In this document: one piece after another, positions 16,286 to 32,000 of the stretch
How the letters are laid out: each line of letters opens with the position of its first letter
How positions within the stretch are numbered: the first letter of the stretch is position 1
DNA from: Aminipila butyrica
Lineage (GTDB): Bacteria > Bacillota > Clostridia > Peptostreptococcales > Anaerovoracaceae
Assembly: GCF_010669305.1 (NCBI RefSeq)
Contig: NZ_CP048649.1
Location: 896,650-928,649 of the forward strand
Direction: 5' to 3'
Length of the DNA: 32,000 bases
The notes under the pieces: generated by a model
Databases searched by the model: none
Seen by the model: only the letters and a program-made list of their open reading frames with translations
What the model was told of the DNA's origin: nothing
Program-made: the position numbers and the translations under genes

Positions 16286-16298
16286 AAAAAGTACATGT

Positions 16299-16326
16299 AG
16301 CCGCCTTAGTAGGACGGCTTTTTTAT
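16299..16326 (+). terminator. Intrinsic terminator after the holin
   Basis: AGCCG...CGGCT stem followed by TTTTTTATTT. Confidence 0.55.
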
Positions 16327-16354
16327 TTGTGTAATCGAGCCTTGTCGAAATAAT

Positions 16355-16386
16355 TAACCGCATATAGTGTCAAATAGTGGTACAAT
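16355..16386 (+). promoter_or_regulatory. Extended -10 promoter candidate
   Basis: TGgTACAAT at 16378-16386. The -35 is weak. Confidence 0.35.
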
Positions 16387-16416
16387 ATGGTAAAAGTATA
16401 TTCTAAGGAGGAGATT

Positions 16417-17070: not shown

Positions 17071-17186
17071 TTATTTGCATTTGAAAGTATCAAATTATTA
17101 TATTTAGCAATAATGTTCTTGAGTGATATAGAATGTTAGTTTATAATCGTGTTACAAACTGTGCAATCCTCATGCACTAAACTTCA

Positions 17187-17215
17187 AAAATACCGGGCAT
17201 TAAACCCGGTATTTT
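17187..17215. terminator. Perfect 11-bp hairpin, A-tract/T-tract flanked (bidirectional-type terminator) at the prophage/cotJC junction
   Basis: AAAATACCGGG-CATTAAA-CCCGGTATTTT. Confidence 0.7.
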
Positions 17216-17750: not shown

Positions 17751-17770
17751 TAGGCAGCTTGAAACTAGAC

Positions 17771-17806
17771 AAAAAAGAGGAAGCTTGGAGCAGCTTCCTC
17801 TTTTCT
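17771..17806. terminator. Bidirectional terminator between convergent cotJC and the immA-like gene
   Basis: AGAGGAAGCT-TGGAGC-AGCTTCCTCT 10-bp stem, flanked by AAAAAA and TTTTC. Confidence 0.7.
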
Positions 17807-17841
17807 TATAAAATATGTAAAATTTCATTTGTTACCGTGCC

Positions 17842-18270
17842 TCAATCGTCTCTGCGAATGGGAAATTCCATGCCCAATTTTCGTTCATAATGGCTCATGC
17901 TAGCCCGGACAAATTCTTCATCCAGGTCCAGAAACTCCGCCACATCAGAGGGGGTACGGCAGCCAGCGTTAGCGGCTCGTTCAAAATGTTCGAAAGGAAG
18001 GAGCTTATCAATCGCCCAAGCCCGCGCTTTGTGCTCCTGCTTTACGTTTGAGGTATCGCTTTGGTCTAAAATATTTCCCACTGTAGTATAATAGTGGCCC
18101 AATTCCTCGGCTAGAACGCAAAGTTTTTCCCGATTGTTTATCTTATAATTAATAGCAATTTTAGCTCCTTTACACAACCCCTTCGCATTGGAACTAAAAT
18201 GCTTTTCCTGAACCTGAATTCCTGCGAATTCTGCTTCTTTCATTAGATCTTCATATGTCAAAGACATCAA
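17842..18270 (-). CDS. ImmA/IrrE-family (M78-like) putative anti-repressor protease, with the variant motif EELGH
   Basis: 142 aa. LCVLAEELGHYYTTVGNIL aligns to the HExxH region of ImmA-like peptidases, but E replaces the first H. Lies downstream of, and co-oriented with, the XRE repressor. Confidence 0.65.
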   Translation of the reverse strand: MMSLTYEDLMKEAEFAGIQVQEKHFSSNAKGLCKGAKIAINYKINNREKLCVLAEELGHYYTTVGNILDQSDTSNVKQEHKARAWAIDKLLPFEHFERAANAGCRTPSDVAEFLDLDEEFVRASMSHYERKLGMEFPIRRDD

Positions 18271-18292
18271 CCCCTTAAATCATTCATCAACA

Positions 18293-18772
18293 CTATAAAT
18301 CTTCTAAGTCCTGCATCATCAGAGCAATCTGCTCTGGAGACATATCGTCATTGTGAGCGGCAATCGGCATCAGATGATCTACCGCTTTTTCTTCCTTTTC
18401 TAAATCGAGAACTTTTCTCGAATAGGTGACGATTTTTTGCTTCCCATCTGGGGAACATCGGGCATAGGTGCTCAACAAGTCCTTTGCGCCGGCAGATAGT
18501 TTGACCGGTTGCTTAAAGGAAGAAATTCGATCTCTGGGTACATCATAGCCCATGAGCCAAGCTTCATTTACGTTCAGTGCCATGCCCAATACGGCCAGCT
18601 TATCCTGATTGGGCTCCACTTTCCCCGACACATACTGGCTGATATCGGATTTATTCATTTTTACCTTATATTTCTCGCAATAAGGCATGGCCATATTTAA
18701 AATATCGATTTGGCGCAGGTTTCTCTCCTCCATCATCATTTTTAACCGCATAGAAGTATTTTCTTTTTTCAT
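18293..18772 (-). CDS. XRE-family HTH repressor (ImmR/CI-like)
   Basis: Start at MKKENTSMRLKMMMEERNLRQIDILNMA... (the track start at 18814 is trimmed). The HTH runs through SQYVSGKVEPNQDKLAVLGMALNVNEAWLMG. The C-terminal domain has no S24 motifs. Paired with an ImmA-like gene. Confidence 0.8.
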   Translation of the reverse strand: MKKENTSMRLKMMMEERNLRQIDILNMAMPYCEKYKVKMNKSDISQYVSGKVEPNQDKLAVLGMALNVNEAWLMGYDVPRDRISSFKQPVKLSAGAKDLLSTYARCSPDGKQKIVTYSRKVLDLEKEEKAVDHLMPIAAHNDDMSPEQIALMMQDLEDL

Positions 18773-18793
18773 GTTGTCACCGCCTTTAATCAA

Positions 18794-18822
18794 AATATAG
18801 CATATATTGAACAAAAGTTCAA
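18794..18822 (-). promoter_or_regulatory. Repressor promoter candidate (minus strand: TTGAAC, 17 nt, TATATT)
   Basis: On the plus strand, GTTCAA is at 18817-18822 and AATATA at 18794-18799. The -35 lies inside the palindrome 18807-18822. Confidence 0.45.
18807..18822. promoter_or_regulatory. Operator-like perfect palindrome TTGAAC-N4-GTTCAA
   Basis: Read directly from the sequence. Related sites: GTTCAA-N4-TTTAAC at 18896-18911 and GTTCAA-N4-TTGAAC at 19139-19154. Confidence 0.4.
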
Positions 18823-18859
18823 TATAAAAAACAAAAAGTTAAAAAAATTGAATTTTATC

Positions 18860-18888
18860 TTGACAAAAGGATAAGCACCCTGTAAGAT
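18860..18888 (+). promoter_or_regulatory. Rightward (lytic-direction) promoter candidate
   Basis: TTGACA (18860-18865), a 17-nt spacer, then TAAGAT (18883-18888). Confidence 0.55.
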
Positions 18889-18928
18889 AGAGATAGTTCA
18901 AAACATTTAACCGAAGAAGGGAAGTCAT

Positions 18929-19213
18929 TTGGTGTTTGATTACAGGAAATTGAGGAAAGAGATTGCTAACAAGTTTAAGACACAAGCAGCCTTTGCCCAG
19001 GCAATGGAATGGTCGGAAAGAACGTTATCGTTAAAATTAAACGGCAAAAGGTTTTGGAAACAGCCGGAAATATGTAAAGCGATACATATATTAGAAGTAC
19101 CTGCGGAATCCATCCAAGAATATTTTTTTACATATTATGTTCAAAATATTGAACTAAAATCAGAAGTGGAAAAGGATTCCATTCTTGCTTCGGCTAATCA
19201 AGAGGTTCAATAA
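18929..19213 (+). CDS. Cro-like / DUF739-like small HTH regulator
   Basis: FDYRKLRKEIANKFKTQAAFAQAMEWSERTLSLKLNGKRFWKQPEICKAIHILEVPAESIQEYFFT resembles DUF739 phage regulators. The start codon is non-ATG (TTG 18929 or GTG 18932). Divergent from the repressor. Confidence 0.6.
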   Translation: MVFDYRKLRKEIANKFKTQAAFAQAMEWSERTLSLKLNGKRFWKQPEICKAIHILEVPAESIQEYFFTYYVQNIELKSEVEKDSILASANQEVQ

Positions 19214-19326
19214 AACGGCCAAAGATATTTTCTTCTATTTCGCCCTGAGCAAGGCGTTAAAAGGCTTGCTCTATGGCCCAGGATTGGCCCCGATGCAGGG
19301 GTACGTGCAGGAAAGGAGGTGTTTCA

Positions 19327-19758
19327 ATGTTAAATCAAATAATCGAGGGCATAACAGTTCAACTGCAGTCGGCCTTCGGCGAAAACGTGACTGTCTACAG
19401 TGAAGAGAATCAGCAGGAGCTTTTGAAGCCTTGTTTCCTCATTTCCCTGCTTCGTGCAGCCCAGAAGCCTTTTCCGGGAAATCGGTATCACCGGGAGTAT
19501 TCAATGGATATTCAATACTTTCCAGGAGAGGGACAAGCACCAAATCACGATATGAATCAGATCGCTGAAAAGCTTCTAGACGTTCTAGAGTATGTGCAGA
19601 CAGAGGCTGGACAAATCCGTGGCACAAACATGAGCTGTGAGAAGCGTGCCGAAGGTCTCCACTTTTTGGTCAATTATGACCTGTATGTCCGCAAGGAACG
19701 GACAAGAGAGGAGGCGATGGGTGAATTCGTTATTGCAAGCGGGATAAAGGAGGAATAA
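19327..19758 (+). CDS. Tail terminator / sheath-completion-like protein
   Basis: ATG 19327 follows GGAAAGGAGGTG. The pattern MLNQIIEGITVQLQSAFGENVTVYSEE..Q.L.KPCFLI resembles phage tail terminator family proteins found upstream of sheath genes. Confidence 0.5.
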   Translation: MLNQIIEGITVQLQSAFGENVTVYSEENQQELLKPCFLISLLRAAQKPFPGNRYHREYSMDIQYFPGEGQAPNHDMNQIAEKLLDVLEYVQTEAGQIRGTNMSCEKRAEGLHFLVNYDLYVRKERTREEAMGEFVIASGIKEE

Positions 19759-19762
19759 ACCG

Positions 19763-19954
19763 ATGAAAGAAAAAAAGACAGACAAAAGTGCTGGGGATAA
19801 GGCGGCGGCTTTTGCAAAGAATCAGCTCCTAGGTTCAACAAAATATGTCCACAGGCGAGATTTATTAAACGCTTTGCTGAAAGAGGACAAAACGTACACT
19901 TTGGAGCAGGTGGATGGACTGATTCAGAAATTTATGGAAGGAAAGGTGAAATAA
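19763..19954 (+). CDS. Small conserved phage protein preceding the sheath gene
   Basis: 63 aa. RBS AAGGAGGAA. The pattern F.KNQLLGSTKY..RRDLLNALL.EDKTYTLEQV recurs in Firmicute phages, from memory. Confidence 0.45.
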   Translation: MKEKKTDKSAGDKAAAFAKNQLLGSTKYVHRRDLLNALLKEDKTYTLEQVDGLIQKFMEGKVK

Positions 19955-19955
19955 T

Positions 19956-21263
19956 ATGGCGTTAGGCGGAGGAAATTTTACAACTCAAAACAAAGGACTG
20001 CCAGGTGCATACATTAATTTTGTATCAGCAGCCAGAGCAGATGCGCAGCTTTCAGAGCGGGGGTATGTGGCCATGGCCCTAGAACTGGAATGGGGGCCAG
20101 ATGGCGAGGTATTTACGGTAGAAGCCGCAGAAGTGCAGAAGAATGCACAGAAAATTTTTGGTTACGGGTATACCCATGAAAAAATGAAGGGAATCCGAGA
20201 TTTGTTTCGGAATGCCAAAACACTTTATGCGTATCGGCTGAACAGTGGTGTAAAGGCAGAGAATACCTATGCTACGGCCAAATACACAGGGACTCGGGGC
20301 AATGATATTAAAATTGTCATTGCAGCTAATGTGGATGACACCGGAAGCTTTGACGTAAAGACCCTGGTGGATAATGTTCTGGTAGATTCTCAGACGGTAA
20401 GGACTGCTACTGATCTGCTGAGCAATGATTATGTAGACTTTAAAAGTGATGGGACGCTGGAAGCTACCGCAGGAATTGGCTTGACAGGAGGCAGCAACAA
20501 GACGGCCATAACTGGTACCGATTACCAGGGATTCCTAGATAAGATTGAAAGTTACAGCTTCAATACGCTGGGCTGTCTGGCGACAGAAAGTGCGATTTGC
20601 GAGTTATTTACAGCCTTTACCCGTCGTCTCAGAGATGAGAATGGCATGAAGTTCCAGACAGTTCTTTATCGGACTGCTGCTGACTACGAAGGAGTCATCT
20701 CCGTGGAAAATGCGGTGTCAGATTCAGGATGGCCGGCTTCGGCAGCGGTGTATTGGACAGCAGGAGCGGAAGCTGGCTGCGCCATTAATAAGACCAACAC
20801 TAACAAGCTCTACGATGGTGAATTCAGCCTGAATGTAGGCTATAGCCAGATTCAGCTGACGGAAGGTGTAAAAGCTGGGCAATTTATGTTCCACAAAGTG
20901 GGGGACAAGGTTCGGGTGCTAGAAGACCTGAATACCTTTGTCAGCTTTATGGAGGAAAAAAATTCAGATTTTGCCAGCAACCAGACTATACGGGTTCTGG
21001 ATCAGATCGGCAACGATATGGCCGTTTTATTCAACGGCAAGTATTTAGGCAACATTCCCAATGACGAATCAGGACGAATCAGTTTCTGGAATGATATTGT
21101 TAAGCATCACCAGGAACTGCAAAAGCTTCGGGCTATTGAGGAATTTTCAGCCAGTGATGTGGTGGTGGAAAAAGGCCAGGATAGAAAAGCCGTATTTGTT
21201 ACGGACCGAGTAATGCCAACAAACGCCATGACCCAGCTTTATATGGTTACGGTTATTCAGTAG
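19956..21263 (+). CDS. xkdK: Contractile tail sheath protein (XkdK-like)
   Basis: 435 aa. The N-terminus GGGNFTTQNKGLPGAYINFVS is typical of XkdK/sheath proteins. Followed by the tube gene. Confidence 0.9.
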   Translation: MALGGGNFTTQNKGLPGAYINFVSAARADAQLSERGYVAMALELEWGPDGEVFTVEAAEVQKNAQKIFGYGYTHEKMKGIRDLFRNAKTLYAYRLNSGVKAENTYATAKYTGTRGNDIKIVIAANVDDTGSFDVKTLVDNVLVDSQTVRTATDLLSNDYVDFKSDGTLEATAGIGLTGGSNKTAITGTDYQGFLDKIESYSFNTLGCLATESAICELFTAFTRRLRDENGMKFQTVLYRTAADYEGVISVENAVSDSGWPASAAVYWTAGAEAGCAINKTNTNKLYDGEFSLNVGYSQIQLTEGVKAGQFMFHKVGDKVRVLEDLNTFVSFMEEKNSDFASNQTIRVLDQIGNDMAVLFNGKYLGNIPNDESGRISFWNDIVKHHQELQKLRAIEEFSASDVVVEKGQDRKAVFVTDRVMPTNAMTQLYMVTVIQ

Positions 21264-21285
21264 AAATAGAAAGGAAGGATAGTCT

Positions 21286-21762
21286 ATGTTAAATCATCAG
21301 ATCATGAATGCAGAAGATGCAGTAAGCGGCTCCCTGGCGGAGTGCTACATCACTATCGACGGAAACCGATATAACTTCATGCAGTTATATAAGTTTGAAT
21401 CCAAAGTGGAGAAGACCATCTCCGAAGTGCCTATTCTAGGCAGAACCGGTAAGGGCCACAAGGCCACCGGCTGGAAAGGAACTTGGACTGGCACGGCCCA
21501 TTATAATCAGTCTATTATGAGAGAATTACTGCTGACATACAAGGAAAAGGGACTAGATGTACCTTTTGATATCCAGGTTACGAATGAGGATGAGACCTCA
21601 TCCATCGGCAGACAAACTATTATCCATAAGAATTGTCTGACCTCCGGGGGCATCCTGGCTAAATACGATGCCGATGCGGAATACCTGGATGAAGATATCG
21701 AAGGAACCTTTGACGATTTTGAAATGCCAGAAAAGTTCAATTTATTGAACGGCATGCGTTAA
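21286..21762 (+). CDS. xkdM: Tail tube protein (XkdM-like)
   Basis: The signature ECYITIDGNRYNFMQ...EVPILGRTGKGHKATGWKGTWTGTAHYN...DIQVTNEDETSSIGRQT matches the XkdM family. Confidence 0.9.
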   Translation: MLNHQIMNAEDAVSGSLAECYITIDGNRYNFMQLYKFESKVEKTISEVPILGRTGKGHKATGWKGTWTGTAHYNQSIMRELLLTYKEKGLDVPFDIQVTNEDETSSIGRQTIIHKNCLTSGGILAKYDADAEYLDEDIEGTFDDFEMPEKFNLLNGMR

Positions 21763-21888
21763 ATGGGTAAACCATATCTGTGAAATAGAGGATTACATTA
21801 TATAACTTGTCGAGAGCGGACAACGCAAAGGGCGTGTCTCTTTCTGCCCGCTCCGATTTAACCCCCATCAGTAAAGGAGAATATAAAC

Positions 21889-22317
21889 ATGAGTAATTTA
21901 AATGCTTTTTTAAACCAGCACGCAAACCGTCCGCAGCACACAAGCTTTGCTGTTTCCCCACGCTTTGTAGATGAAGAGGGGCAGCCTGTAAAGTGGGAGC
22001 TGCGAAGTCTGACACAAAGTGAAAGCCAAAAACTGAAAAAGGAATGCACAAAAAGAGTTCAGGTACCTGGAAAGAAAGGGATTTTCACTTCGGAAACAGA
22101 CATTGATGATCTGCTTTGCAAGATGGCAGTCGCTTGTACGGTTTTTCCAAATCTGAATGATGTGACGCTGCAAGACAGTTATCAGGTCATGGGAGCAGAA
22201 AATCTTTTGCAGGAGATGCTGCTGCCGGGAGAATATGGCAATTTCATGGAAAAACTCCAGGAGATCAATGGCTTTGATATCTCTATGGAAGATAAGGTAG
22301 AAGAAGCAAAAAACTAA
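21889..22317 (+). CDS. xkdN: Tail assembly chaperone, short form (XkdN-like)
   Basis: 142 aa, between the tube and tape measure genes. XkdN-like pattern (FAVSPRFVDEEGQPVKWELRSLTQSE). Confidence 0.75.
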   Translation: MSNLNAFLNQHANRPQHTSFAVSPRFVDEEGQPVKWELRSLTQSESQKLKKECTKRVQVPGKKGIFTSETDIDDLLCKMAVACTVFPNLNDVTLQDSYQVMGAENLLQEMLLPGEYGNFMEKLQEINGFDISMEDKVEEAKN

Positions 22318-22490
22318 TCAAGGAGGGCGACTATGAGGCCAACATGGCTTATTACGTCCTCCACAAGTTCCACATCCTGCCCGGCGATTTTATGGCCTTG
22401 TCGGATGAAGAGCGAGCTTTTGTCTATGCAGCTATCAACGTCCGCCTGGAAGAAGAAAAGAGACAGGCTGCAAAGATGAAAAAGAAATGA
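21889..22490 (+). CDS. Tail assembly chaperone, long form via -1 frameshift (extension ...KKLIKEGDYEANMAYYVLHKFHILPGDFMALSDEERAFVYAAINVRLEEEKRQAAKMKKK)
   Basis: The -1 frame region 22308-22490 is not in the ORF track (under 60 aa from its ATG 22344). It overlaps the slippery site and ends 1 nt before the TMP start. Confidence 0.55.
22308..22314 (+). promoter_or_regulatory. -1 programmed frameshift heptamer A_AAA_AAC
   Basis: The zero-frame reads GCA AAA AAC TAA. The -1 frame is open from 22296 to TGA 22488-22490. Confidence 0.6.
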
Positions 22491-22491
22491 G

Positions 22492-24441
22492 GTGAGAAGA
22501 TTGACGACTATAAACGCATCAATCCAAATGACACAAAATATGTCGGCAGCTATGCAGTCCATTCATGGCAGTACAAATTCGGCCATAAGCAGCTTTGCAA
22601 GTCTGCAATCGGCTATTTCCCAGGCCAATATTCAAATGGAGATCGCAGTCGACAAACAAGAGGATTTTCAGAAAGAGACTGCTGGAAGTATAAAAGGGAT
22701 GACGTTATTAAAAAATGCCATGAGTGGGCTTGGTGTAAGCTTAGATATTCAAAAAGTGCTCCAGCTTTCTGATGCCATGGCACAAACTAAGGCCCGTTTA
22801 AGCCTAATGAATAAAGATGAATCATCCACAGGGGAGCTGCAAAGTAAAATATTTGATTCAGCTAATCGAAGTGGGAATTCCTATGCGAACACGGCCAACG
22901 CGGTAACCGATTTGGGACTCAATGCCGGAGATTCTTTTCAGAGCAACGATGCGGTAATTGCTTTCGTTGAGCAGGTTAATAAGCAGCTTGCCTTAGGCGG
23001 AACAGCCGCGGATCAGCAGTCCAATGCCATGGCCCAGTTGTCTCAGGCTATGGCGGGAGGAGTTCTCCAGGGCGAGGCCTTGAATACCGTTCTAGATGCT
23101 GCACCAGGCATAGGACGGAGCATCGAGGAATCCATGGGCTGGGCAGAGGGTTCCATCCGTTCTTATGCAGAACAAGGTGCGGTGACCTCCCAAGTTGTAA
23201 GAGATTCCATGTTTGCCATGCAGGGAGCGACCAATGCTGCATTTAATGATATGGGCATGACCTGGCAGCAGGTGGGGAATGTCATGTCTAATAAACTGCT
23301 ACAGATGTCTACACCTTTATTGGCATTTATCAATACCCTAGCAAAAAATTGGAGTATTTTAGAACCTATTGTAGTAGGCGTACTTGGTGCTCTGGCATTG
23401 TATAAAGGGGCGGTACTAGCATCAGCGGCAGCAACAGCATTTGCTAGTTTTCATACTGCCCTACTTAACATATTGACTGGAGGAACATCTTTGCGGGTGG
23501 CACTTGCCAATTGGGCTTTAAAAAAACAAGCGGTGGCGACAACAGAGGCGGCTGTGGCTCAATGGGGCCTTAACGCAGCGTTACTGGCCTCTCCCCTTAC
23601 CTGGATTGTCGGTATATTACTCGTGGTAATAGTAACACTTTATGCAGTAGTAGCGTGGATTAACAAAACAAAAGATACAACTATCTCAGCTACAGGACTA
23701 ATTGTGGGGGCCTTCTTTGCTTTAGGTGCTATTATTTATAACATAATTGTCGGAGTTATTAATGCGATTATGCAGATCGCATGGACTCGCTTTGCTGAAC
23801 CATGGATTGGAATAATAGAGTGGGTATTAAATGTGTTTAATGGCGGATTTAACAGCTTTGGAGACGCCGTTAAAAACCTACTTGGAAATATTATTTCTTG
23901 GTTTTTATCTCTTGGGAAAGTGGCTACTAAGATTATAGACGCTATTTTTGGAACAAATTGGACAGAAGGTCTTAATGCCTTGCAAGACAAAGTTCTTAAG
24001 TGGGGAAAAAATGATAAGGCAATCACTTTGAACCGGACTGCACCGACTATAAACTCCCGATTAGGCGTAAAGAATTCATTTAACACAGGCTATGGTATGG
24101 GAGAAAATGGTGGAGATGTGCTCAAAGGTATGTTTGATCCTAGGGCACTTGATAATTTTAATCCAAATGGTGAGGAAACTGCTGCTAATGTGGCAGGCAT
24201 CGCAGGCAACACCGGCAGTATGGCCGATTCCATGTCTGTCTCTGAGGAAGACATGACTTATCTGCGAGACATTGCAGAGCGGGAAGCCATCAACCGCTTC
24301 ACTACGGCGGAAATCAAAGTAGAGATGGCCAACAGTTTCGGTGACGTTCGAGAGACCGCTGATGTAGACGGTATCATCAGTTATCTGGCATATAAAATAG
24401 AGGAACAGATGGCCGTATCCGCGGAAGGGGTGTATATATAA
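22492..24441 (+). CDS. xkdO: Tail tape measure protein (XkdO-like)
   Basis: 649 aa, with a central hydrophobic block. Position after the chaperone pair. The start is uncertain (GTG 22492, TTG 22501 or ATG 22528). Confidence 0.85.
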   Translation: MRRLTTINASIQMTQNMSAAMQSIHGSTNSAISSFASLQSAISQANIQMEIAVDKQEDFQKETAGSIKGMTLLKNAMSGLGVSLDIQKVLQLSDAMAQTKARLSLMNKDESSTGELQSKIFDSANRSGNSYANTANAVTDLGLNAGDSFQSNDAVIAFVEQVNKQLALGGTAADQQSNAMAQLSQAMAGGVLQGEALNTVLDAAPGIGRSIEESMGWAEGSIRSYAEQGAVTSQVVRDSMFAMQGATNAAFNDMGMTWQQVGNVMSNKLLQMSTPLLAFINTLAKNWSILEPIVVGVLGALALYKGAVLASAAATAFASFHTALLNILTGGTSLRVALANWALKKQAVATTEAAVAQWGLNAALLASPLTWIVGILLVVIVTLYAVVAWINKTKDTTISATGLIVGAFFALGAIIYNIIVGVINAIMQIAWTRFAEPWIGIIEWVLNVFNGGFNSFGDAVKNLLGNIISWFLSLGKVATKIIDAIFGTNWTEGLNALQDKVLKWGKNDKAITLNRTAPTINSRLGVKNSFNTGYGMGENGGDVLKGMFDPRALDNFNPNGEETAANVAGIAGNTGSMADSMSVSEEDMTYLRDIAEREAINRFTTAEIKVEMANSFGDVRETADVDGIISYLAYKIEEQMAVSAEGVYI

Positions 24442-25097
24442 TGGCTTATGAAATGCGTTTAAACGGAATGCTGCTGCCGGTGACCCCGGAGAAATTGCAG
24501 CGAAAAGTTAAAAACCAAAATGAGACGGTTACCTTGATTGATGGAAGCGAGGTAAATTTGCTAAAAGCTCCTGGACTAATGGAGATTGAGTTAGAGGCTT
24601 TGCTGCCGCAGACAATGTATCCTTTTGCTATATATCCCGATGGATTCCAACCTGCCGAATACTACCTGGATGAACTAAAACGGCTCAAGGATGACAAAAA
24701 GGCATTTACGTTCACTGTGACTAGAGAGAGCCCTTCAGGGCAGAAGCTGTTTTATACCGAAATGGAAGTCTCCTTAGAGGATTACACTATAGCGGAATCT
24801 GCCGACAACGGGCAAGATGTAATGGTGTCCATAACGCTGAAAGAATATAGGCCTTATGGCACAAAGCGGCCTCCTGTAGTTTCTGTCGACCCTCAGGGTG
24901 TTACGACTATTTCCGTCGTAGAATCTCGTCCAGCTAAAGAACCTGCGGCATCTTACACGGTAAAAGCCGGGGATAAACTGTGGGATATATGTAAAGTCCA
25001 CCTGGGCGATGGGAGGCGGTATTCAGAAATTGCCAAATTAAATGGTATCTCTAACCCCAATTTAATTTTCGCAGGGCAGGTGATTCGTCTTGGCTGA
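24441..25097 (+). CDS. xkdP: LysM-domain tail protein (XkdP-like)
   Basis: C-terminal LysM: YTVKAGDKLWDICKVHLGDGRRYSEIAKLNGISNPNLIFAGQVIRL. ATG overlaps the TMP stop (TAATG). Confidence 0.85.
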   Translation: MAYEMRLNGMLLPVTPEKLQRKVKNQNETVTLIDGSEVNLLKAPGLMEIELEALLPQTMYPFAIYPDGFQPAEYYLDELKRLKDDKKAFTFTVTRESPSGQKLFYTEMEVSLEDYTIAESADNGQDVMVSITLKEYRPYGTKRPPVVSVDPQGVTTISVVESRPAKEPAASYTVKAGDKLWDICKVHLGDGRRYSEIAKLNGISNPNLIFAGQVIRLG

Positions 25098-26061
25098 CAT
25101 TCGGCTTTATATAACAAATAACGGAATTATTTATGAACCAGTTGTGGAAGGGGAGATCACGTGGGAAACCGAGCGGTTTGGATCCCCTGGGATACTGTCC
25201 TTTACGGTACTGAAAGATTCTGTTATCAATTTCCAGGAGGGCAATTTGGTGCAGTTATATGTAGGCGATGTGAAAACCTTTTATGGCTTTGTTTTTACCA
25301 AAAAGAGGTCTACGAGTAAAGCAGGCGCCATCAATGTGACAGCTTACGACCAACTGCGATATTTGAAGAATAAAGATGCCTATATTTATCCAGAGGCTAT
25401 GACGGCTACTCAATTGATAAGGGCCTTGGCACATACTTATCGGCTTCAAGCTGGGGAGCTGGAAGATACGGGGTTCATCATTCCCAGAAGAGTGGAAAGT
25501 AACCAGACCCTCTTTGACACGATACAGACGGCGCTGGATGAAACATTGATGAGCACTAGACAGCTCCATGTGCTTTACGACGACTTCGGTAAGCTGACTC
25601 TGCGAAATCTTGAAACCATGAAGCTGCCAATTCTTATCGCTCCGGGAACGGCAAGTGATTTCGATTATTCCACCAGCATCGATTCTGGCACCTACAATCA
25701 AGTTAAGCTTTATTACGATAATCAAGATACACACAAAAGAGAGGGTATGGTCGACTTTGATCCAGTGAATATTGAAAAATGGGGTGTCCTGCAGCTGTGT
25801 GAGAGCGTTCAAAACAAGGGCAGTATCCAACAGAAAGTGAAAGATTTGTTAAAGTTTTACAACATGAAGACTCGCAGCTTGTCTGTGAAGAAAGCGTTTG
25901 GTGACATTCGAGTTCGAGGAGGTTCTGGGGTAATGGTAAGTCTGAACCTGGGAGATATCAAAGTCAACACGTACATGCTGGTGGAGAAGGTTAAACACAC
26001 TATAACGGAAGAAAGCCATTTTATGGACCTGACATTGAGAGGATGTGATGCATATGTCTAA
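25090..26061 (+). CDS. xkdQ: Baseplate hub / XkdQ-like protein
   Basis: 323 aa. TTG start overlaps the end of the xkdP-like gene. Syntenic position. Confidence 0.7.
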   Translation: MADIRLYITNNGIIYEPVVEGEITWETERFGSPGILSFTVLKDSVINFQEGNLVQLYVGDVKTFYGFVFTKKRSTSKAGAINVTAYDQLRYLKNKDAYIYPEAMTATQLIRALAHTYRLQAGELEDTGFIIPRRVESNQTLFDTIQTALDETLMSTRQLHVLYDDFGKLTLRNLETMKLPILIAPGTASDFDYSTSIDSGTYNQVKLYYDNQDTHKREGMVDFDPVNIEKWGVLQLCESVQNKGSIQQKVKDLLKFYNMKTRSLSVKKAFGDIRVRGGSGVMVSLNLGDIKVNTYMLVEKVKHTITEESHFMDLTLRGCDAYV

Positions 26062-26476
26062 TTTAGTGCAATTGATTAAAAAAGCCTCCCTGGAAGCAGG
26101 AGAGGCGGCCGGACCTATGACCGCAGGCTTTGGTAAGGTGGTCTCGGAGAGACCCTTGAAAATTCAAATTGATCAGAAAATCACATTGGATGGGGAATTC
26201 CTTCTGGTGCCAGAGAGTTTGACGGATCATCAGGTGAACATGGTCGTAGATCATCAGACTCAGCCTTCTGGAGGCTTTAGCCATGGCCATAGCGTGACTA
26301 CAGATGGAGGAAGCGGCAGTGCTTCCCCTCATTCCCAGTCCAACCATGCCCACGAGTACAGCGGAACAAAGAGCTTTACGGTGCTAAATGGCTTGCGGAC
26401 AGGAGACAAGGTTATTTTGCTCCGGGTCCAGGGGGGGCAAAAATATATTGTACTGGATAGAGAGGGGAGCGTATGA
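26054..26476 (+). CDS. xkdR: Baseplate spike-like protein (XkdR / DUF2577-like)
   Basis: MSNLVQLIKKA...GKVVSERPLKIQIDQKITLDGEFLLVPESLTDH followed by a His-rich tip (HGHSVTTDGGSGSASPHSQSNHAHEY). Confidence 0.65.
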   Translation: MSNLVQLIKKASLEAGEAAGPMTAGFGKVVSERPLKIQIDQKITLDGEFLLVPESLTDHQVNMVVDHQTQPSGGFSHGHSVTTDGGSGSASPHSQSNHAHEYSGTKSFTVLNGLRTGDKVILLRVQGGQKYIVLDREGSV

Positions 26477-26877
26477 TACCACAAATTGATACAGACCTGC
26501 AAAATGCTTTTGAACTGGCAGAGAGACAACCAAGCCGAACGTATCGGTTAGATCTGAAAAGTGGGCGAATCTTCGGCACGGTTGACCAGTTGGAAGCCAT
26601 GAAACAGGCCATATATAAAATTTTGAACACGGAGCGCTACCAGTATGCAATCTATAGCTGGAATTACGGTGCAGAGTTGGCAGCCCTTATAGGTCAGCCA
26701 GCTACCTATGTCATGGCTCTGATAAACAGGCGAATTACCGAAGCTTTGACTCAAGATGATCGCATTACCGAAGTAGATAATTTCTCCTTTGTTCGAGATA
26801 AAAAGACGATTCAGGTATCCTTTACCGTTCATACCATATACGGTCGAATTGATGCCGAGAAAGAGGTGAACATCTAA
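26473..26877 (+). CDS. xkdS: Baseplate wedge protein, gp25/W-like (XkdS / DUF2634-like)
   Basis: The pattern RTYRLDLKSGRIFGTVDQLEAMKQAIYKILNTERYQYAIYSWNYGAEL matches this family. ATGA overlaps at both ends. Confidence 0.75.
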   Translation: MIPQIDTDLQNAFELAERQPSRTYRLDLKSGRIFGTVDQLEAMKQAIYKILNTERYQYAIYSWNYGAELAALIGQPATYVMALINRRITEALTQDDRITEVDNFSFVRDKKTIQVSFTVHTIYGRIDAEKEVNI

Positions 26878-27929
26878 TGTATGAACAGATGACTTATGAA
26901 TTGCTGCTACAGCGTATGCTGGACAGAGTGCCCTCTGATGTGGATAAGAGGGAAGGGAGCATCATTTATGATGCATTGGCTCCAGCGGCTGTAGAATTGC
27001 AAAATATGTATATTCAGCTGGAAGCTGTACTTAATGAGGGGTTTGCAGATACTCAGAGCCGGTCCTATTTGATTCGTAGAGCAGGGGAACGAGGGATTGT
27101 ACCAGAAGCAGCGACCTTTGCCGTGCTCCGGGGGGTATTTAATAAAGATATTCCAATTGGCTCCCGTTTTAGTTTAGGAATCCTGACCTATACTGCCATA
27201 GAAAAAATGGCTGATGGCTCTTTTAAACTACAATGTGAGACAGCAGGTCAGGCCGGAAACCAGTTGGAAACATTGATTCCCATCGACTATATTGCTGATT
27301 TAACTAGAGCAGAAGCGACAGAGATTTTGGTTCCTGGGGAAGATGAAGAGACAACAGAAAAGCTGCGGGCCCGATATTATGCAAACTTGGATTCTAAATC
27401 CTTTGGAGGTAATATCCAGGATTACAAGGAAAAAGTCAACGCTTTGTCTGGAATAGGCGGGGTAAAGGTTTATCCCGTTTGGAATGGCGGGGGCACAGTC
27501 CGCCTGACAGTAATCAGTTCGGCTTATGAATCCCCCTCCAGTGTACTGGTAGATGAAGTGCAGGAGGCAGTGGATCCGGTGGGCCATACCGGAGAAGGGT
27601 ATGGCCTTGCTCCCATCGGCCATCGAGTGACGGTGGGCGGAGTGAAGGAGACAGAGGTCCATATTTCTACCCATATCGTCTATCAAGAGGGCTGGAATTG
27701 GGAAGACGTAAAGGATTACGTTTTGTCAGCAATTGACCGCTATTTTATGGAGCTGGCTGGTCAGTGGTCAGAGGAAAAGAATCTGATTGTTCGAATCAGT
27801 CAGATTGAGACTAGGCTGCTAAATGTACCGGGAATCATTGATATAGCCGATACTACCATAAACGAACTTACTCAAAACCTAATCTTGGACAGCGACTGCA
27901 TACCAAAGCGGGGTGATGTGATTGGATAG
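26877..27929 (+). CDS. xkdT: Baseplate J-like protein (XkdT-like)
   Basis: 350 aa. The N-terminus YEQMTYELLLQRMLDRVPSDVDKREGSIIYDALAPAA is typical of baseplate J family proteins. Confidence 0.85.
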   Translation: MYEQMTYELLLQRMLDRVPSDVDKREGSIIYDALAPAAVELQNMYIQLEAVLNEGFADTQSRSYLIRRAGERGIVPEAATFAVLRGVFNKDIPIGSRFSLGILTYTAIEKMADGSFKLQCETAGQAGNQLETLIPIDYIADLTRAEATEILVPGEDEETTEKLRARYYANLDSKSFGGNIQDYKEKVNALSGIGGVKVYPVWNGGGTVRLTVISSAYESPSSVLVDEVQEAVDPVGHTGEGYGLAPIGHRVTVGGVKETEVHISTHIVYQEGWNWEDVKDYVLSAIDRYFMELAGQWSEEKNLIVRISQIETRLLNVPGIIDIADTTINELTQNLILDSDCIPKRGDVIG

Positions 27930-28488
27930 AAGAATCAACTTGATTGCTTATTTGCCGGAGATACTCCAGGACATAAGAGAATTTAAGACTGTAGCCGAAA
28001 CAGAAAATTTAGAACTAAAACAGCTGCAAGCTGCACTGAACGCGGCATTAAATGATCTCTTTGTGGAGTCCAGCACGGAATACGGCGTAGCTCGCTGGGA
28101 AAAGATTTTGAAAATCAGTCCGAAGGGCACGAATTCCCTGGCAGAGCGGAAGTTTCGAATCCTAGCCAGATTGAATGAGCAGCTGCCATACAGCTACCGG
28201 ATGCTGGCTCGGCAGTTGGCTACCTTATGCGGAGAAGAGGGGTACAGTCTAAAAGAAAATATTGAGACCTATCAGCTGATTGTCCGGGTAGCCTTGGCGG
28301 CTAAGAGCAACTTTGATGATGTACAAAAGCTTTTGGAACGGGTAGTTCCCTGCAATGTGGCTGTTGATTTGAGCCTGATTTATAACCAGTATCAAGTTTT
28401 AGAAGCATTTACCTATGGCCAACTGGAAGCTTATACCTATGAGCAAATGAGAGAGGAGCCTCTGAATGGGAATAAATTTAACGGATAA
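27922..28488 (+). CDS. xkdU: Baseplate / tail-fibre connector (XkdU / DUF2313-like)
   Basis: The pattern YLPEILQDIREFKTVAETEN...GVARWEKILKISP...ERKFRILARL matches XkdU/YmfQ-type proteins. Confidence 0.7.
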   Translation: MDRRINLIAYLPEILQDIREFKTVAETENLELKQLQAALNAALNDLFVESSTEYGVARWEKILKISPKGTNSLAERKFRILARLNEQLPYSYRMLARQLATLCGEEGYSLKENIETYQLIVRVALAAKSNFDDVQKLLERVVPCNVAVDLSLIYNQYQVLEAFTYGQLEAYTYEQMREEPLNGNKFNG

Positions 28489-29518
28489 TTACAAGTTAAA
28501 AAAGCCGGAAAAGAATGAGTTCTTTAATGTACAGCATCAAAATGACAACATGGATGTCATTGATGGGCAGTTGAAAGAAAATACAGAAGCGGTTTTAAAG
28601 AAGGTAGATCGCATCCAAGGCAAGGGACTGAGCACAGAAGACTTTACCACCGCTGAGAAGAACAAATTGGCGGGGGTGCCAACCAATGCTGGAGAAATGA
28701 AGATTTCTGAGGCGGTTAGGACGCTGTATGGGCTGACGGCGGCAGAAGGGAATGTGGATAAGGCGCTGAAAAAAATACCACCTAAAATGGAGGTGATACA
28801 GAGATTTACAACTTCACAGCTTTTTTTGATACCCTCAACTGTTACTAAAATTGATTTATACATGGTAGGCGGCGGACAAAATGGCGGGGACGGCGGGGAG
28901 GATACTAAAGGTTCATCAGGAAGCATAGCTTATGGTGGAAAAGGTGGTGATGGAGGGGCTATTTTGTATTTAACGAATCTTGTAGTAACCCCTAATACCA
29001 CTGTAGCTATTGTAATCGGACAAGCAGGGTCTCCAAGCAGTTTTGATAAGTTCTCAACCGATGATTCTAGTTTTTTCTTCTCGAATCCGAATACACCTTC
29101 AACAAGTCTGTCCACTTTGTCAACGTACCCTAAAAACGTATTGGGTTTAAGGTGTTGCCCATTTGACGGTAAAATCTATGGAATTCCAGGAGCACCAGGG
29201 GGGTTTGCTAAATGGTACACTAAAACATATGGCGCTGGAAGTAATATAAGCTTATTCGGATTAAATAAAGTTGGCGGCAGTGGGACAATTGTCGCTGGAA
29301 AAGACCATACAAGCGGCGGAGGCGGTGCAAGTTACGAGAATAATGGTGGAAATGGATCAGAAATAAAAGGCGGCGATGGGGGAAATGCATCTCCAAACAC
29401 TGGTCACGGCGGAGGCGGAGGCGGAGGCGCTACTGGTGGGGATAAATACGACGGAACTTTGTCAGGTCTAGGAGGAGTAGGTGGAAGCGGCATAGTAATA
29501 GTTAGATATTATAAATAA
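28466..29518 (+). CDS. Tail fibre / receptor-binding protein A (glycine-rich C-terminal domain)
   Basis: The N-terminus MGINLTDNYKLKKPEKNEFFNVQHQNDNMDVIDGQL is an XkdV-type anchor. GLSTEDFTTAEKNKLAGV is a fibre repeat. The block KISEAVRTLYGLTAAEGNVDKAL is shared with 11699. GG-rich C-terminus ends GIVIVRYYK. Confidence 0.7.
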   Translation: MGINLTDNYKLKKPEKNEFFNVQHQNDNMDVIDGQLKENTEAVLKKVDRIQGKGLSTEDFTTAEKNKLAGVPTNAGEMKISEAVRTLYGLTAAEGNVDKALKKIPPKMEVIQRFTTSQLFLIPSTVTKIDLYMVGGGQNGGDGGEDTKGSSGSIAYGGKGGDGGAILYLTNLVVTPNTTVAIVIGQAGSPSSFDKFSTDDSSFFFSNPNTPSTSLSTLSTYPKNVLGLRCCPFDGKIYGIPGAPGGFAKWYTKTYGAGSNISLFGLNKVGGSGTIVAGKDHTSGGGGASYENNGGNGSEIKGGDGGNASPNTGHGGGGGGGATGGDKYDGTLSGLGGVGGSGIVIVRYYK

Positions 29519-29529
29519 GGAGGTATATC

Positions 29530-29889
29530 ATGGGAATATGTTTAATTAACAAATATACAGATATTTGTGAACGTATTGTAATATTTACAGATATGTCAGT
29601 GGCAGAAGAAATGTTTGGAGACACCTATATTTTAACGGAACAAGTGACCGGTTTCAATATAGGTGATATCTATCAAGATGGAACTTGGAGTAAGGTAGAG
29701 GTCTACCCAGAGGAAAAAGAAGCCAACAAAGAAGAGGATACGCTTATTATGATGATAGATCAGGAGTACAGAATAACCAAGTTAGAACTTGGAATATATG
29801 GAGAAAGAGGTGAAAATTCATATGATTTACAGAACCATAAAAAGAATGATCGAAAAGGGTTTAGCAGATGGTTTGGAAGAAAAGCTTGA
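29530..29889 (+). CDS. Hypothetical protein after fibre A (XkdW position)
   Basis: 119 aa. RBS AAGGAGGTA. Its 3' 68 nt overlap the XkdX-like ORF, so the true end is uncertain. Confidence 0.4.
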   Translation: MGICLINKYTDICERIVIFTDMSVAEEMFGDTYILTEQVTGFNIGDIYQDGTWSKVEVYPEEKEANKEEDTLIMMIDQEYRITKLELGIYGERGENSYDLQNHKKNDRKGFSRWFGRKA

Positions 29890-29956
29890 TGTTTTTTACG
29901 CTGCTGGAAAATTAACGGCAGAGGAATATGCCGAACTAACAGAACTTCTGAAATAA
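29822..29956 (+). CDS. xkdX: XkdX-family small protein (44 aa), absent from the ORF track
   Basis: MIYRTIKRMIEKGLADGLEEKLDVFYAAGKLTAEEYAELTELLK matches the XkdX pattern (..IKR.Y..G.......V..GKITAEEY.EIT). RBS AGAGGTGA upstream. Confidence 0.55.
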   Translation: MIYRTIKRMIEKGLADGLEEKLDVFYAAGKLTAEEYAELTELLK

Positions 29957-30013
29957 AATTTAGAGCTAAAAAACAGTTATATGTAAGAAGAACAGAAAGG
30001 AGGAACAGATAAT

Positions 30014-30751
30014 ATGGGAATAAATTTGACAGATAACTATGGGTTAAAAAAACCAGAAAAAAATGAATTTTTTGACGTACAACACCAGAACGACAACATG
30101 GACAGAATTGACGAACAAATGAAAAATAACGCTAATGCGATGTTAAAGAAGAACGGCAGTATACAAATGGACGGGCCGCTGAAGACCGTTGGTTCCACAA
30201 CTACTATTCCAGCTAGTCAGATTGAAATGGGGAAGAATGCAATAATGACAAGGGACGGCAAGGTGGTATATCTTGCTGTAAATTGTTATCACGATGGAAC
30301 AGACTGGAGGTATAAAGGTAATGGTAAAGCCCTGGTAGTTACGTTTGGGGTAGAATATGATTTTCCTATTATGAATGTTGCCGATATCGGTACCAAAGAT
30401 GCCGTTATCAGTTTCCGTTACGTTAATATGCTTACCAACGAGACTGGGCTGCCTCTAACTGGTGGTACAGTAGCAGGTGATATTACGATTGACAAAAAGG
30501 GTGCATTGGGCAAAACTCTAATCATGAAAAATTCCGATGCCACCATTGATTATGGAACCCAGATTTACGACCATAATCAAGCAAATAGTTACGCAGCCCT
30601 TGTTTTAAATGCTAATTTGGAGTTGAATTCTAAAGCGGTGTTGTATGTAAGTGGAACCACATATAACCTATATGGGACACATAACATAATAGTTTCAACC
30701 ATTTCTCCAAGCTCTGCACTTAACGACGGTGCGCAGCACCAAGTATATTGA
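30014..30751 (+). CDS. Tail fibre / receptor-binding protein B (alternative distal domain)
   Basis: It has the same roughly 38-aa N-terminal anchor as fibre A (MGINLTDNYGLKKPEKNEFFDVQHQNDNMDRIDEQM) and then diverges completely. Contains the fibre motif LPLTGGTVAGDITI. Confidence 0.65.
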   Translation: MGINLTDNYGLKKPEKNEFFDVQHQNDNMDRIDEQMKNNANAMLKKNGSIQMDGPLKTVGSTTTIPASQIEMGKNAIMTRDGKVVYLAVNCYHDGTDWRYKGNGKALVVTFGVEYDFPIMNVADIGTKDAVISFRYVNMLTNETGLPLTGGTVAGDITIDKKGALGKTLIMKNSDATIDYGTQIYDHNQANSYAALVLNANLELNSKAVLYVSGTTYNLYGTHNIIVSTISPSSALNDGAQHQVY

Positions 30752-30756
30752 GGTAA

Positions 30757-31329
30757 ATGACTATGACAATATATAGAGGCGTAGGCGGTGTAAACCGTGA
30801 AATTAAACAGCAATTCAGAGGAGTAGGTGGAGTTAACCGTGAGATTAAAGAACAGTATCGTGGGGGTGGTGGGGTTAATCGGAAGGTCTTCAACGCTAAA
30901 TCAGCGGTGGCCCTGTATTGGCAAGGTGACGAATGTAAAGAGATTACTGGTGGATGGGCAGCCTATTATGGAAAACCTTTTACTTTTACAAAGTTGACAG
31001 ATCGAATGCATATAGAAAAAACTAGCTATGCCACCGGTAGCAGAGTGTGCACAGTCGGCACAGTTAATGTAACAGAGTTCAATAAACTTAAATGCACAGC
31101 TATTATAACACTTGCAGATCGTGTAGGGAACATAGGTTGTGGGATTCCTTCTGACCGAAATGGCGATGGATCAACGATAATTGTAGAGCATAAAATTCAA
31201 GGTACCAATTATGCTCTAGGTGATACTATAAATTTTGAGGTGAATATATCAGCCTATACAGGGTACCGGGCCATATGTTTTGGGCTTTTTGCAGCTGGTA
31301 TGGATGTTTATAAAATATGGTTAGAATAG
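30757..31329 (+). CDS. Hypothetical protein with three N-terminal 14-aa repeats and a beta-rich C-terminal domain
   Basis: RGVGGVNREIKQQF, RGVGGVNREIKEQY, RGGGGVNRKVFNAK. The start may be ATG 30763. Follows fibre B. Confidence 0.5.
   Translation: MTMTIYRGVGGVNREIKQQFRGVGGVNREIKEQYRGGGGVNRKVFNAKSAVALYWQGDECKEITGGWAAYYGKPFTFTKLTDRMHIEKTSYATGSRVCTVGTVNVTEFNKLKCTAIITLADRVGNIGCGIPSDRNGDGSTIIVEHKIQGTNYALGDTINFEVNISAYTGYRAICFGLFAAGMDVYKIWLE
30775..30900 (+). repeat. 3 x 42-bp in-frame tandem repeat
   Basis: Copies at 30775-30816, 30817-30858 and 30859-30900. Copies 1 and 2 differ mostly at synonymous positions. Confidence 0.85.
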
Positions 31330-31341
31330 GGAGGAATAATT

Positions 31342-31743
31342 ATGAAAATTAAATTAAACGACAACACACGATTAAATGTAATACTTGTAAATGGCAAGTC
31401 TACATATTTCCAAGGAGCAAACCGGGACAGCCTAGAGTTTGTTTTTAAGAAAGGGGACTACCCTTTTGACGAACTGGACGCACTGTTTGCTGATTCAGAA
31501 AAAGTAAAAAAAATTATCATACAATCTGACACGACTGCTACCGAGGCAGAAGGGAAGCCAGTGGAAACCCCAACGGAGCATATCTATGATGACTATTCCC
31601 TGAGGGTGGGCATGAAAATGGAGCCTGTAGTACTTTCTCCGGCTACGTCTACCACGCCAGAAATCACGGAAGAACGGGTCATGATTACCATGGCACAGCT
31701 GACGTTGATTGAAAGAAAGCTATCGGATATCGGGTTGTTATAA
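31342..31743 (+). CDS. Hypothetical protein (last gene before the lysin)
   Basis: 133 aa. RBS GGGAGGAA. I recognised no family. Confidence 0.4.
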   Translation: MKIKLNDNTRLNVILVNGKSTYFQGANRDSLEFVFKKGDYPFDELDALFADSEKVKKIIIQSDTTATEAEGKPVETPTEHIYDDYSLRVGMKMEPVVLSPATSTTPEITEERVMITMAQLTLIERKLSDIGLL

Positions 31744-31759
31744 CCAAAATCAAATAAAA

Positions 31760-31794
31760 AGGACAAGTCTCTGACGTGTACGAAGACTTGTCCT
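31760..31794 (+). terminator. Strong 11-bp stem-loop without a T-run
   Basis: AGGACAAGTCT, a 13-nt loop, then AGACTTGTCCT. Confidence 0.4.
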
Positions 31795-31853
31795 CTATCA
31801 TAACATATAAATAGGGACCTTTGGGCCCCTGGTTTAAAAGGAGGGAAGCTACC

Positions 31854-32000
31854 ATGCAGCTACAACATTTACCCTATACGCCGCTGCGCATCACATCTGG
31901 CTTCGGCCCTCGAAAAACGAACATTGCCGGAGCATCCACCTACCATCTAGGGGTGGACTTAGGTACGGATAAAAGCAAGCCTTATACGGCAACAGATGGA
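31854..32000 (+). CDS. Peptidase M23 lysin, second copy (3' end off-window)
   Basis: MQLQHLPYTPLRITSGFGPRKTNIAGASTYHLGVDLGTDKSKPYTATDG is 46/49 aa identical to the N-terminus of ORF 15235. RBS AAAGGAGGGAAG. Confidence 0.8.
   Translation, partial: MQLQHLPYTPLRITSGFGPRKTNIAGASTYHLGVDLGTDKSKPYTATDG

Follow-up and report, generated by a model that had tools for sequence, protein, structure and literature searches.

When the contractile-tail genes of a phage stand in a chromosome without head genes and directly behind a regulatory switch, do they encode a killing particle of the host, or are they what a deletion has left of a prophage? This question is raised by a locus at positions 17842-32000 of a 32-kb stretch of the genome of Aminipila butyrica, an anaerobic gut-type bacterium. 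We refer to the whole 32-kb stretch as the window; it closes inside a lysin gene of the locus, and the right end of the element and its holin gene would lie beyond position 32000. Genes were called from Pfam and PHROG profile matches to each open reading frame (ORF). The sheath and Baseplate J proteins of the locus are 100% identical to database proteins of A. butyrica. We conclude that the locus is probably an R-type phage tail-like bacteriocin (tailocin) of A. butyrica, driven by read-through from an early promoter. On our best reading it would derive from a temperate phiC2/CDMH1-like myophage that has lost everything which once separated its first early gene from the tail terminator gene.

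A complete contractile tail without a head

The locus contains a complete contractile-tail gene set on the plus strand. The first structural gene encodes the tail terminator protein (19327-19758; PF20765, E=6e-33) and has a GGAGG ribosome-binding site upstream. It is followed by the gene for a conserved 63-aa protein (19763-19954; phrog_966), which precedes the sheath gene in most relatives, and by genes for the contractile sheath itself, 435 aa long with four sheath domains (19956-21263), and an XkdM/DUF2001 tail tube (21286-21762; E=4e-20 to XkdM of PBSX). An XkdN-type tail assembly chaperone (21889-22317), with a -1 frameshift extension to 22490 and a total length of ~200 aa, stands before the 649-aa tape measure protein (22492-24441; TMP_3, E=2e-35). 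The remaining core genes encode a LysM-domain tail protein equivalent to XkdP (24441-25097), a YqbQ/XkdQ-like baseplate protein (25090-26061; PF24032, E=1e-103), a DUF2577/XkdR-like baseplate protein (26045-26476), the gp25/XkdS-like sheath initiator (26473-26877; PF10934, E=3e-33), an XkdT-like Baseplate J protein (26877-27929) and a Mu gp48-like, XkdU-like baseplate protein (27922-28488). Fibre genes and a lysin gene complete the operon.

Profile searches place every gene of the PBSX-type tail order that the original prediction had read from 19327 onward, most of them with strong matches and the XkdX-like ORF with a weak one. All of the ~20 genes are intact and their lengths match those in complete phages. 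Their tight coupling, also predicted, was borne out, as most junctions overlap or span no more than 12 nt. Terminator-like sites on the plus strand inside the operon are few and weak, and total counts are near shuffle expectation.

The chaperone gene carries a slippery heptamer, A_AAA_AAC, at 22308-22314, just before its stop codon. The ORF that follows in the -1 frame is 58 codons long, and the extension matches phrog_10943. Heptamer and -1 ORF are kept in the window and in all nine relatives checked, with one base differing in one of them (L003). The frameshift is therefore conserved, as had been claimed; it does not serve as a sign of a maintained device, since complete phages have it too.

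No head, packaging, replication, integrase or sigma-like gene was found among the profile matches in 17842-32000. The absence of terminase, portal, capsid, replication, integrase and late-sigma genes that had been proposed thus holds for the element as far as position 32000. It does not hold for the window, which contains two phage-derived elements, both on the plus strand; positions 1-16285 are taken up by the late half of another prophage, which is of siphovirus type and has capsid genes. We considered these capsid genes as part of the tail element and rejected the assignment, because they lie within a complete siphovirus-type late region that has a lysis cassette of its own.

The tail operon directly follows an ImmA/XRE/Cro-like switch

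The region to the left of the tail genes has an ImmR/ImmA-type layout, in which the genes for a helix-turn-helix (HTH) repressor and then an M78 metalloprotease lie on one strand and face the regulated operon. The XRE/CI-like HTH repressor is encoded on the minus strand at 18293-18772 (likely start ATG at 18772; the ORF is open to 18814). Downstream on the same strand is the gene for an ImmA-like metalloprotease (17842-18270; Peptidase_M78, IrrE N-terminal-like; PF06114, E=1e-6; phrog_87, E=2e-29), a putative anti-repressor. After ImmA comes a terminator-like hairpin of 15 pairs with a T run (17771-17806, minus strand), which leaves no room for an integrase gene. This hairpin, also just 3' of the stop codon of a cotJC-like gene, forms the left edge of the element.

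Facing the repressor across a 156-bp divergent region is a DUF739 HTH protein in the Cro position (18929-19213, plus strand; E=8e-25). DUF739 is likewise the first rightward gene facing the repressor in a locus of phage-type context (L030), followed there by a Bro-N antirepressor gene. The divergent region contains a promoter-like site for the repressor (18822-18794, minus strand) and one for the Cro-like gene (18860-18888, plus strand); the latter, TTGACA-17-TAAGAT, is better than any other plus-strand promoter-like site in the region. Operator-like palindromes with TTGAAC/GTTCAA half-sites occur at 18807-18822, 18838-18853 and 18896-18911, and a fourth, the perfect copy GTTCAAAATATTGAAC, lies at 19139-19154 inside the 3' end of the Cro-like gene. 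Window-wide there are five matches to GTTCAA-N4-TTGAAC, three of them within 320 bp. A perfect palindrome with the motif of these operator-like sites, GTTCAATTTATTGAAC, was also seen at 21735-21750, at the 3' end of the tube gene.

The sequence GAAC-N4-GTTC at 18809-18820 is its sole occurrence in 32 kb (0.31 expected). It is also the core of the Gram-positive LexA box, and we considered it as a mark of LexA control across the family. This was set aside: the switches of the other headless loci described below do not have GAAC-N4-GTTC, and we treat the site as an operator for that reason. It may serve the XRE or the Cro-like protein.

Between the stop codon of the Cro-like gene and the terminator ATG lie 113 nt (19214-19326, plus strand), against a predicted ~110 nt. 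A scan of this spacer returned no terminator-like site and no promoter-like site, and folded as RNA it shows no more structure than shuffled sequences do (z = -0.54). A remnant of an HK97 gp10-like connector gene was sought in the spacer and none was found. Alignment with the activator-to-terminator spacers of the headless loci L025, L005 and L003, made in search of a common promoter or motif, revealed nothing conserved, and no late activator gene is present between switch and tail genes. The central claim of the original prediction, a headless tail cluster behind an ImmA/XRE/Cro-like switch, is upheld by these results.

We infer, as the simplest reading, that a deletion brought the late tail operon into fusion with the early promoter, in which case derepression would directly drive the tail and lysis genes. 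In the resting cell, the XRE repressor would occupy the TTGAAC/GTTCAA operator-like sites and close the rightward promoter at 18860-18888. Upon DNA damage or other stress the co-transcribed ImmA would cleave the repressor, as its homologue ImmA does ImmR in ICEBs1. The rightward transcript would then read through from the Cro-like gene across the ~20 tail genes into the M23 lysin gene and presumably a holin gene, bypassing the late activator of the parental phages and of the other headless relatives. Baseplate proteins (the LysM protein and the XkdQ/R/S/T/U equivalents), tape measure, the two chaperone forms, tube, sheath and terminator would be expected to assemble into headless contractile particles bearing one or both fibres. 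Lysis would free these particles, which, judging from R-pyocins and diffocins, would bind related cells, contract, puncture the membrane and kill.

The tail belongs to a myophage lineage with recurrent headless loci

The cluster had been likened to diffocin, the R-type phage tail-like bacteriocin of Clostridioides difficile, whose cluster in CD630 includes CD1363 and CD1364 (PMC6088184, PMC11329794). The comparison is sound for architecture and fails for sequence. The diffocin sheath CD1363 (354 aa) matches only residues 188-405 of the 435-aa sheath (E=4e-8), and the diffocin tube CD1364 matches the tube over part of its length (E=1e-6), whereas the closest deposited phages, the C. difficile myophages CDMH1, phiC2, phiMMP01 and phiMMP03, have 61-62% sheath identity over the full length. 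By sequence, we assign the tail module to the phiC2/CDMH1 myophage lineage and not to that of diffocin.

The context of the tail module could be read in ten head-bearing loci and in seven headless ones, the window included. Uncultured relatives with 68-73% sheath identity (L022, 73%; L023, 72%; L024) are complete phages with the order terminase, portal, MuF, scaffold, capsid, connectors, HK97 gp10-like protein, terminator, and sheath onward. Head or connector genes also lie directly upstream of the terminator gene in L001, L007-L011 and L018.

Headless versions of the tail module occur in five further kinds of locus. L021/L025, on a metagenome contig and with 75% sheath identity, encodes FeoB, ImmA, XRE, a 135-aa DUF1492/sigma-region-4-like protein and then terminator through fibre; at its right end are an M23 lysin and a holin, followed by SASP, LacI and other host genes. 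L028, in the complete genome of Sinanaerobacter sp. ZZT-01, has on its left a peroxiredoxin gene, an XRE protein with a zinc finger, a 145-aa activator-like protein and a scaffold gene fragment, and on its right terminator through baseplate, three fibres, an M23 lysin and a holin, then Pirin. The Anaerovorax loci L002/L003 are syntenic with L028, sharing its chromosomal site and its scar. L005, from a Lachnospiraceae genome bin, has the order XRE, DUF1492 protein, terminator. L029, on a 294-kb contig, encodes ImmA, an HTH protein, DUF722, terminator through fibre, XhlA and an M23 lysin, then host genes; its baseplate protein was found on 8 contigs. Readings of L002, L003 and L005 cover the left-hand part, and readings of the lysis end cover L025, L028 and L029. 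In these last three, where the downstream end is readable, the lysis genes are kept and host genes lie on both sides. The small DUF1492/DUF722/sigma-region-4-like activator before the terminator gene in the other headless loci resembles a repressor-then-activator cascade of the PrtR/PrtN kind.

The deletion endpoints differ by locus, and all fall within ~400 nt upstream of the terminator ATG. The window has no detectable scar; homology between L005 and the head-bearing L008 starts 17 nt before the terminator ATG; the endpoint in L025, which has a remnant of a gp10-like C-terminus, is ~100 nt before it; and L003 and L028 have the scaffold fragment. On the sheath tree the headless loci are not monophyletic, and complete phages fall between the window and L021/L025; L021 is no closer to the window than to the complete phages L022 and L023. 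Together, the differing scars and the absence of monophyly indicate that heads were lost several times independently, at least four times with different endpoints. A single headless lineage uniting the window with L021/L025 was considered and found unsupported, given the intervening complete phages and the difference in regulator and scar.

The ImmA of the A. butyrica element is 59% identical to that of L021/L025, and the motif HLMPIAAHNDDMSPEQIALMMQDLEDL is common to the C-termini of the window and L025 repressors. This motif belongs to a near-identical C-terminal tail, HLMPIAAHN[DE]D.SPEQI.LM.DLEDL (window 18293-18372, L025 1355-1440), in repressors whose DNA-binding parts are very different. 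The common tail is possibly the part recognised by ImmA.

Purifying selection in a related headless pair

L028 and L002/L003 have flanking gene, regulators and scar in common. The loci stay collinear, with 78-82% nucleotide identity, as far as the fibre genes; these have diverged. Nei-Gojobori estimates of the ratio of nonsynonymous to synonymous divergence (dN/dS) lie between 0.016 and 0.17 at dS ~0.5-2 in 12 of 12 tail genes. These values indicate strong purifying selection after head loss in this pair. The concentration of variation in the fibres is the pattern known from tailocins.

The scaffold fragment (PF06810, profile positions 83-149) persists as an ORF shortly before the terminator gene in all three of these loci (L028 2157-2540, L003 2160-2468, L002 1568-1876). 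Its dN/dS of ~0.1 suggests that this ORF may be a co-opted gene and not a dead scar.

In L003 (Anaerovorax sp. IOR16) a siphovirus-type tail module at 13346-19804 lies directly 3' of the R-type fibre genes, with no head genes between. It encodes a putative tube and a 588-aa putative tape measure, neither with a family match, a chaperone, Dit, and a Sipho_Gp37 gene split in two. The syntenic Sinanaerobacter locus does not have this module, which could be either the second half of an R-type and F-type tandem, as in pyocins, or a decaying remnant.

A probable tailocin and its alternatives

The explanation that competes most seriously with a tailocin is a prophage remnant left by a recent deletion. 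A single event of illegitimate recombination would have taken the early, packaging and head genes, and the tail would be intact through youth, unselected and perhaps not usefully expressed. We judge this unlikely, but several findings lend it weight and count against the tailocin. Complete phages (L022, L023) are as close to the A. butyrica element as its nearest headless relative of known context (L021), and L021 is at a different locus with a different regulator and a different deletion scar. No same-site counterpart of the element was found: scans for a copy gave nothing above 66% in genomes and nothing above 62% in metagenomes, and a search of IMG/VR with the terminator protein returned no relative. 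No other Aminipila species is among the named sheath matches, so the element may be young. That headless forms can be very recent deletions follows from L005, which is 93% identical in sheath to the head-bearing L008. Decay also occurs, as shown by IOR16, in which the LysM gene is frameshifted and a gene in the adjacent siphovirus-type tail module is split. The A. butyrica element alone is without the DUF1492/DUF722/sigma-region-4-like activator of the other headless loci, making adequate expression of its tail genes an assumption, and it sits in a prophage-rich spot beside a truncated gene.

A remnant would nevertheless have to account for ~20 intact genes with preserved ribosome-binding sites, overlaps and frameshift site, for an early promoter joined to exactly the first gene needed for tail completion, and for the retention of lysis genes. 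It would also have to account for the same outcome being reached independently at least four times with different endpoints, and for purifying selection where this is measurable. However young, a deletion of this layout would still yield tails and cell lysis on derepression. We therefore prefer a tailocin, whose genomic hallmarks the locus shows as far as the window reaches. The original view of a maintained device rather than a decaying prophage gains from the recurrence of headless loci and from the purifying selection between L028 and L002/L003; it is weak for the A. butyrica element itself, given complete phages at 68-73%. Long-term maintenance of this element by selection can be proposed by analogy with its relatives only, since complete phages are close, the headless loci are not monophyletic and no other Aminipila species is among the named matches.

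We regard it as very unlikely that the locus is the tail-only half of a split or partnered virus, with head genes beyond 32000 or with tails that join the capsids of another element, as with capsid-forming satellites. The right end of the cluster is outside view, and capsid genes of a second prophage are present 17 kb upstream, yet in ten of ten head-bearing relatives the head or connector genes are directly upstream of the terminator gene and never after the lysis genes, and host genes follow the lysis cassette in three headless relatives. The upstream prophage, moreover, has its own complete non-contractile tail and connectors, and the connector genes needed for joining (gp6-like, head closure, HK97 gp10-like) are absent from the tail element.

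It is hardly credible that the locus encodes an Afp/PVC-type extracellular contractile injection system, which would deliver a protein toxin to eukaryotic or bacterial cells. Such a system too is a headless contractile sheath-tube-baseplate machine, but the profile matches within the window include no AAA+ ATPase, no toxin cargo and no gene of Afp type. Every component falls into a phage family of the XkdK-to-XkdU kind, the locus encodes a tape measure, a chaperone with a frameshift and a phage lysin, and the sheath is 62-75% identical to phage or prophage sheaths.

Comparison with known systems

PBSX and the skin element, two defective prophages of Bacillus subtilis, have the same tail gene order, XkdK to XkdX, and gave the Pfam families (XkdM, XkdN, YqbQ) their names; in PBSX the Xre repressor is paired with the ImmA-like XkdA. 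PBSX has retained its terminase, portal and capsid genes, fills small heads with random DNA and uses the Xpf sigma factor. The genes for its terminase, portal, capsid and Xpf-type sigma factor are all absent from 17842-32000, a difference that had been correctly foreseen.

Diffocin is likewise a headless contractile-tail cluster in a spore-forming host of the clostridial class, with sheath, tube, tape measure, sheath initiator, baseplate and fibre genes. Its particles are released by lysis after stress induction, as those of the A. butyrica element would be. The sheath and tube of diffocin are non-orthologous to those described here; the A. butyrica element comes from another myophage lineage, has short fibres and lies directly behind an ImmA/XRE/Cro-like switch. 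The C. difficile myophages CDMH1, phiC2, phiMMP01 and phiMMP03 are complete phages, and the A. butyrica element has the switch in place of everything upstream of their terminator gene.

The R-type pyocins of Pseudomonas aeruginosa, controlled by PrtR/PrtN, are domesticated chromosomal contractile tails that are induced by stress, released by lysis and variable chiefly in their fibres, all of which is proposed for the present element. Their repressor-then-activator cascade is mirrored in L025, L028, L005 and L029. They differ in having an unrelated P2-like tail and RecA-aided cleavage of the repressor, whereas the A. butyrica element has no activator step and a repressor paired with ImmA. The ImmR/ImmA pair of ICEBs1 (PMC8960796) shares with this element an HTH repressor gene followed on the same strand by that of an M78-type metalloprotease, both facing the regulated operon. 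In ICEBs1 the pair is followed by an integrase gene and controls conjugation genes; in A. butyrica a terminator-like hairpin directly follows ImmA and the operon encodes a tail.

Reviews treat diffocin as essentially the sole well-documented headless R-type tailocin of Gram-positive bacteria, and a review of clostridial prophages reports that Gram-positive tailocin producers, those among the clostridia included, mostly keep their capsid genes (PMC10538166). Our literature search found no paper on prophages or tailocins of A. butyrica. The evidence presented here points to two features, namely repeated headless, chromosomally fixed clusters from this phage-tail lineage in anaerobic Clostridia, and an unusually direct wiring in A. 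butyrica. It suggests that gut-associated anaerobic Clostridia have headless contractile tailocins more often than is recognised, and that such tailocins evolve repeatedly from one phage-tail lineage. More tentatively, it is quite possible that anaerobic Clostridia (Anaerovoracaceae, Lachnospiraceae and relatives) hold an unrecognised and fairly common class of R-type tailocins. These would have originated repeatedly from phiC2/CDMH1-like myophages by deletions ending just upstream of the terminator gene, and would occupy fixed sites under purifying selection with arrays of two or three fibres; A. butyrica would represent a distinct, activator-free regulatory solution through the ImmA/XRE early promoter.

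If the particles are active, such clusters of ~14-16 kb would be compact scaffolds whose modular fibres could be used for the narrow-spectrum killing of anaerobes that are hard to target. The independent deletions would then amount to a natural experiment in the conversion of phages to weapons, and the direct fusion to an early promoter would be the simplest regulatory design among these headless loci.

Fibre genes and the lysis end

Two fibre genes follow the baseplate genes, and all genes in this part of the element are on the plus strand. Fibre 1 (28466-29518) has a glycine-rich C-terminal domain (Gly_rich_2), and its middle segment is related to the fibre of the upstream siphovirus-type prophage at 11699-12889 (38% over 85 aa). 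A 119-aa ORF in the XkdW position starts at 29530 and is overlapped by the 44-aa XkdX-like ORF (29822-29956), whose match to PF09693 is weak and under the family cut-off (E=0.008). Fibre 2 (30014-30751) ends in QHQVY, which matches the C-terminal end of the L025 fibre. The first 54 aa of fibres 1 and 2 are 74% identical (28466-28627 and 30014-30175), after which the two differ. In the Sinanaerobacter locus L028, three fibre genes (11708, 13110, 15196) have one N-terminal anchor in common. Such multi-fibre sets look like arrays of alternative receptor-binding proteins, and two fibres on one anchor here and three in L028 would be consistent with diversification of targeting.

Downstream of fibre 2 are the genes for a 190-aa protein (30757-31329) and a 133-aa protein (31342-31743), neither with a family match. 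Homologues of both stand at the same position in L021/L025, and they are possibly fibre accessory or chaperone proteins. The 190-aa protein opens with three tandem RGVGGVNREIK-like motifs (30757-30890), which are kept in L025 (77% over 43 aa) and have no family match.

A 10-bp GC-containing hairpin, GGACAAGTCT ... AGACTTGTCC, lies at 31761-31793, within the 110 nt that separate the lysin gene from the last tail gene; it may set lysin expression apart from that of the tail genes. The window then ends with the first 49 codons of the M23-peptidase lysin (31854-32000), 46 of whose 49 residues are identical to those of the lysin of the siphovirus-type prophage (15235-15816). The lysin genes of the two co-resident elements have 85% nucleotide identity over the compared parts (15235-15380 and 31854-31999), and their homology starts exactly at the ATG; the two elements could recombine through this pair. 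Relatives have a holin gene 3' of the M23 gene, as the next gene in L025 and after one 94-aa gene in L028.

The neighbouring siphovirus-type prophage

The siphovirus-type late region encodes a ClpP-type prohead protease (219-1028) and an HK97-type capsid protein (1047-2234), and further head-tail connectors, a lambda-like tube, chaperones, an 873-aa tape measure, distal tail proteins, a Kelch/Big_2 protein and the fibre at 11699-12889. Its lysis cassette consists of the M23 lysin (15235-15816; PF01551) and holins to 16285. The prophage is separated from the tail element by genes for a secreted protein with a copper-amine-oxidase N-terminal domain (16387-17070) and a cotJC-like manganese catalase (17214-17750).

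A host-type cotJC gene had been taken as the left boundary of the tail element. This is not supported, since the cotJC-like gene lacks ~26 N-terminal profile positions, and is therefore not an intact host gene, and since it adjoins another prophage. It looks as if it was split by the siphovirus-type prophage, as are some sporulation genes interrupted by prophage-like elements; its other half would lie to the left of the window. A hairpin with a T run is found directly upstream of it.

Two ORFs that do not look phage-derived, at 4939-5832 (lipoprotein-like) and 5870-6682, lie between the chaperone and tape measure genes of the siphovirus-type prophage. Near the 5' end of its tape measure gene, at 6789-6962, is an 87-nt tandem duplication in perfect register, the copies being 97% identical.

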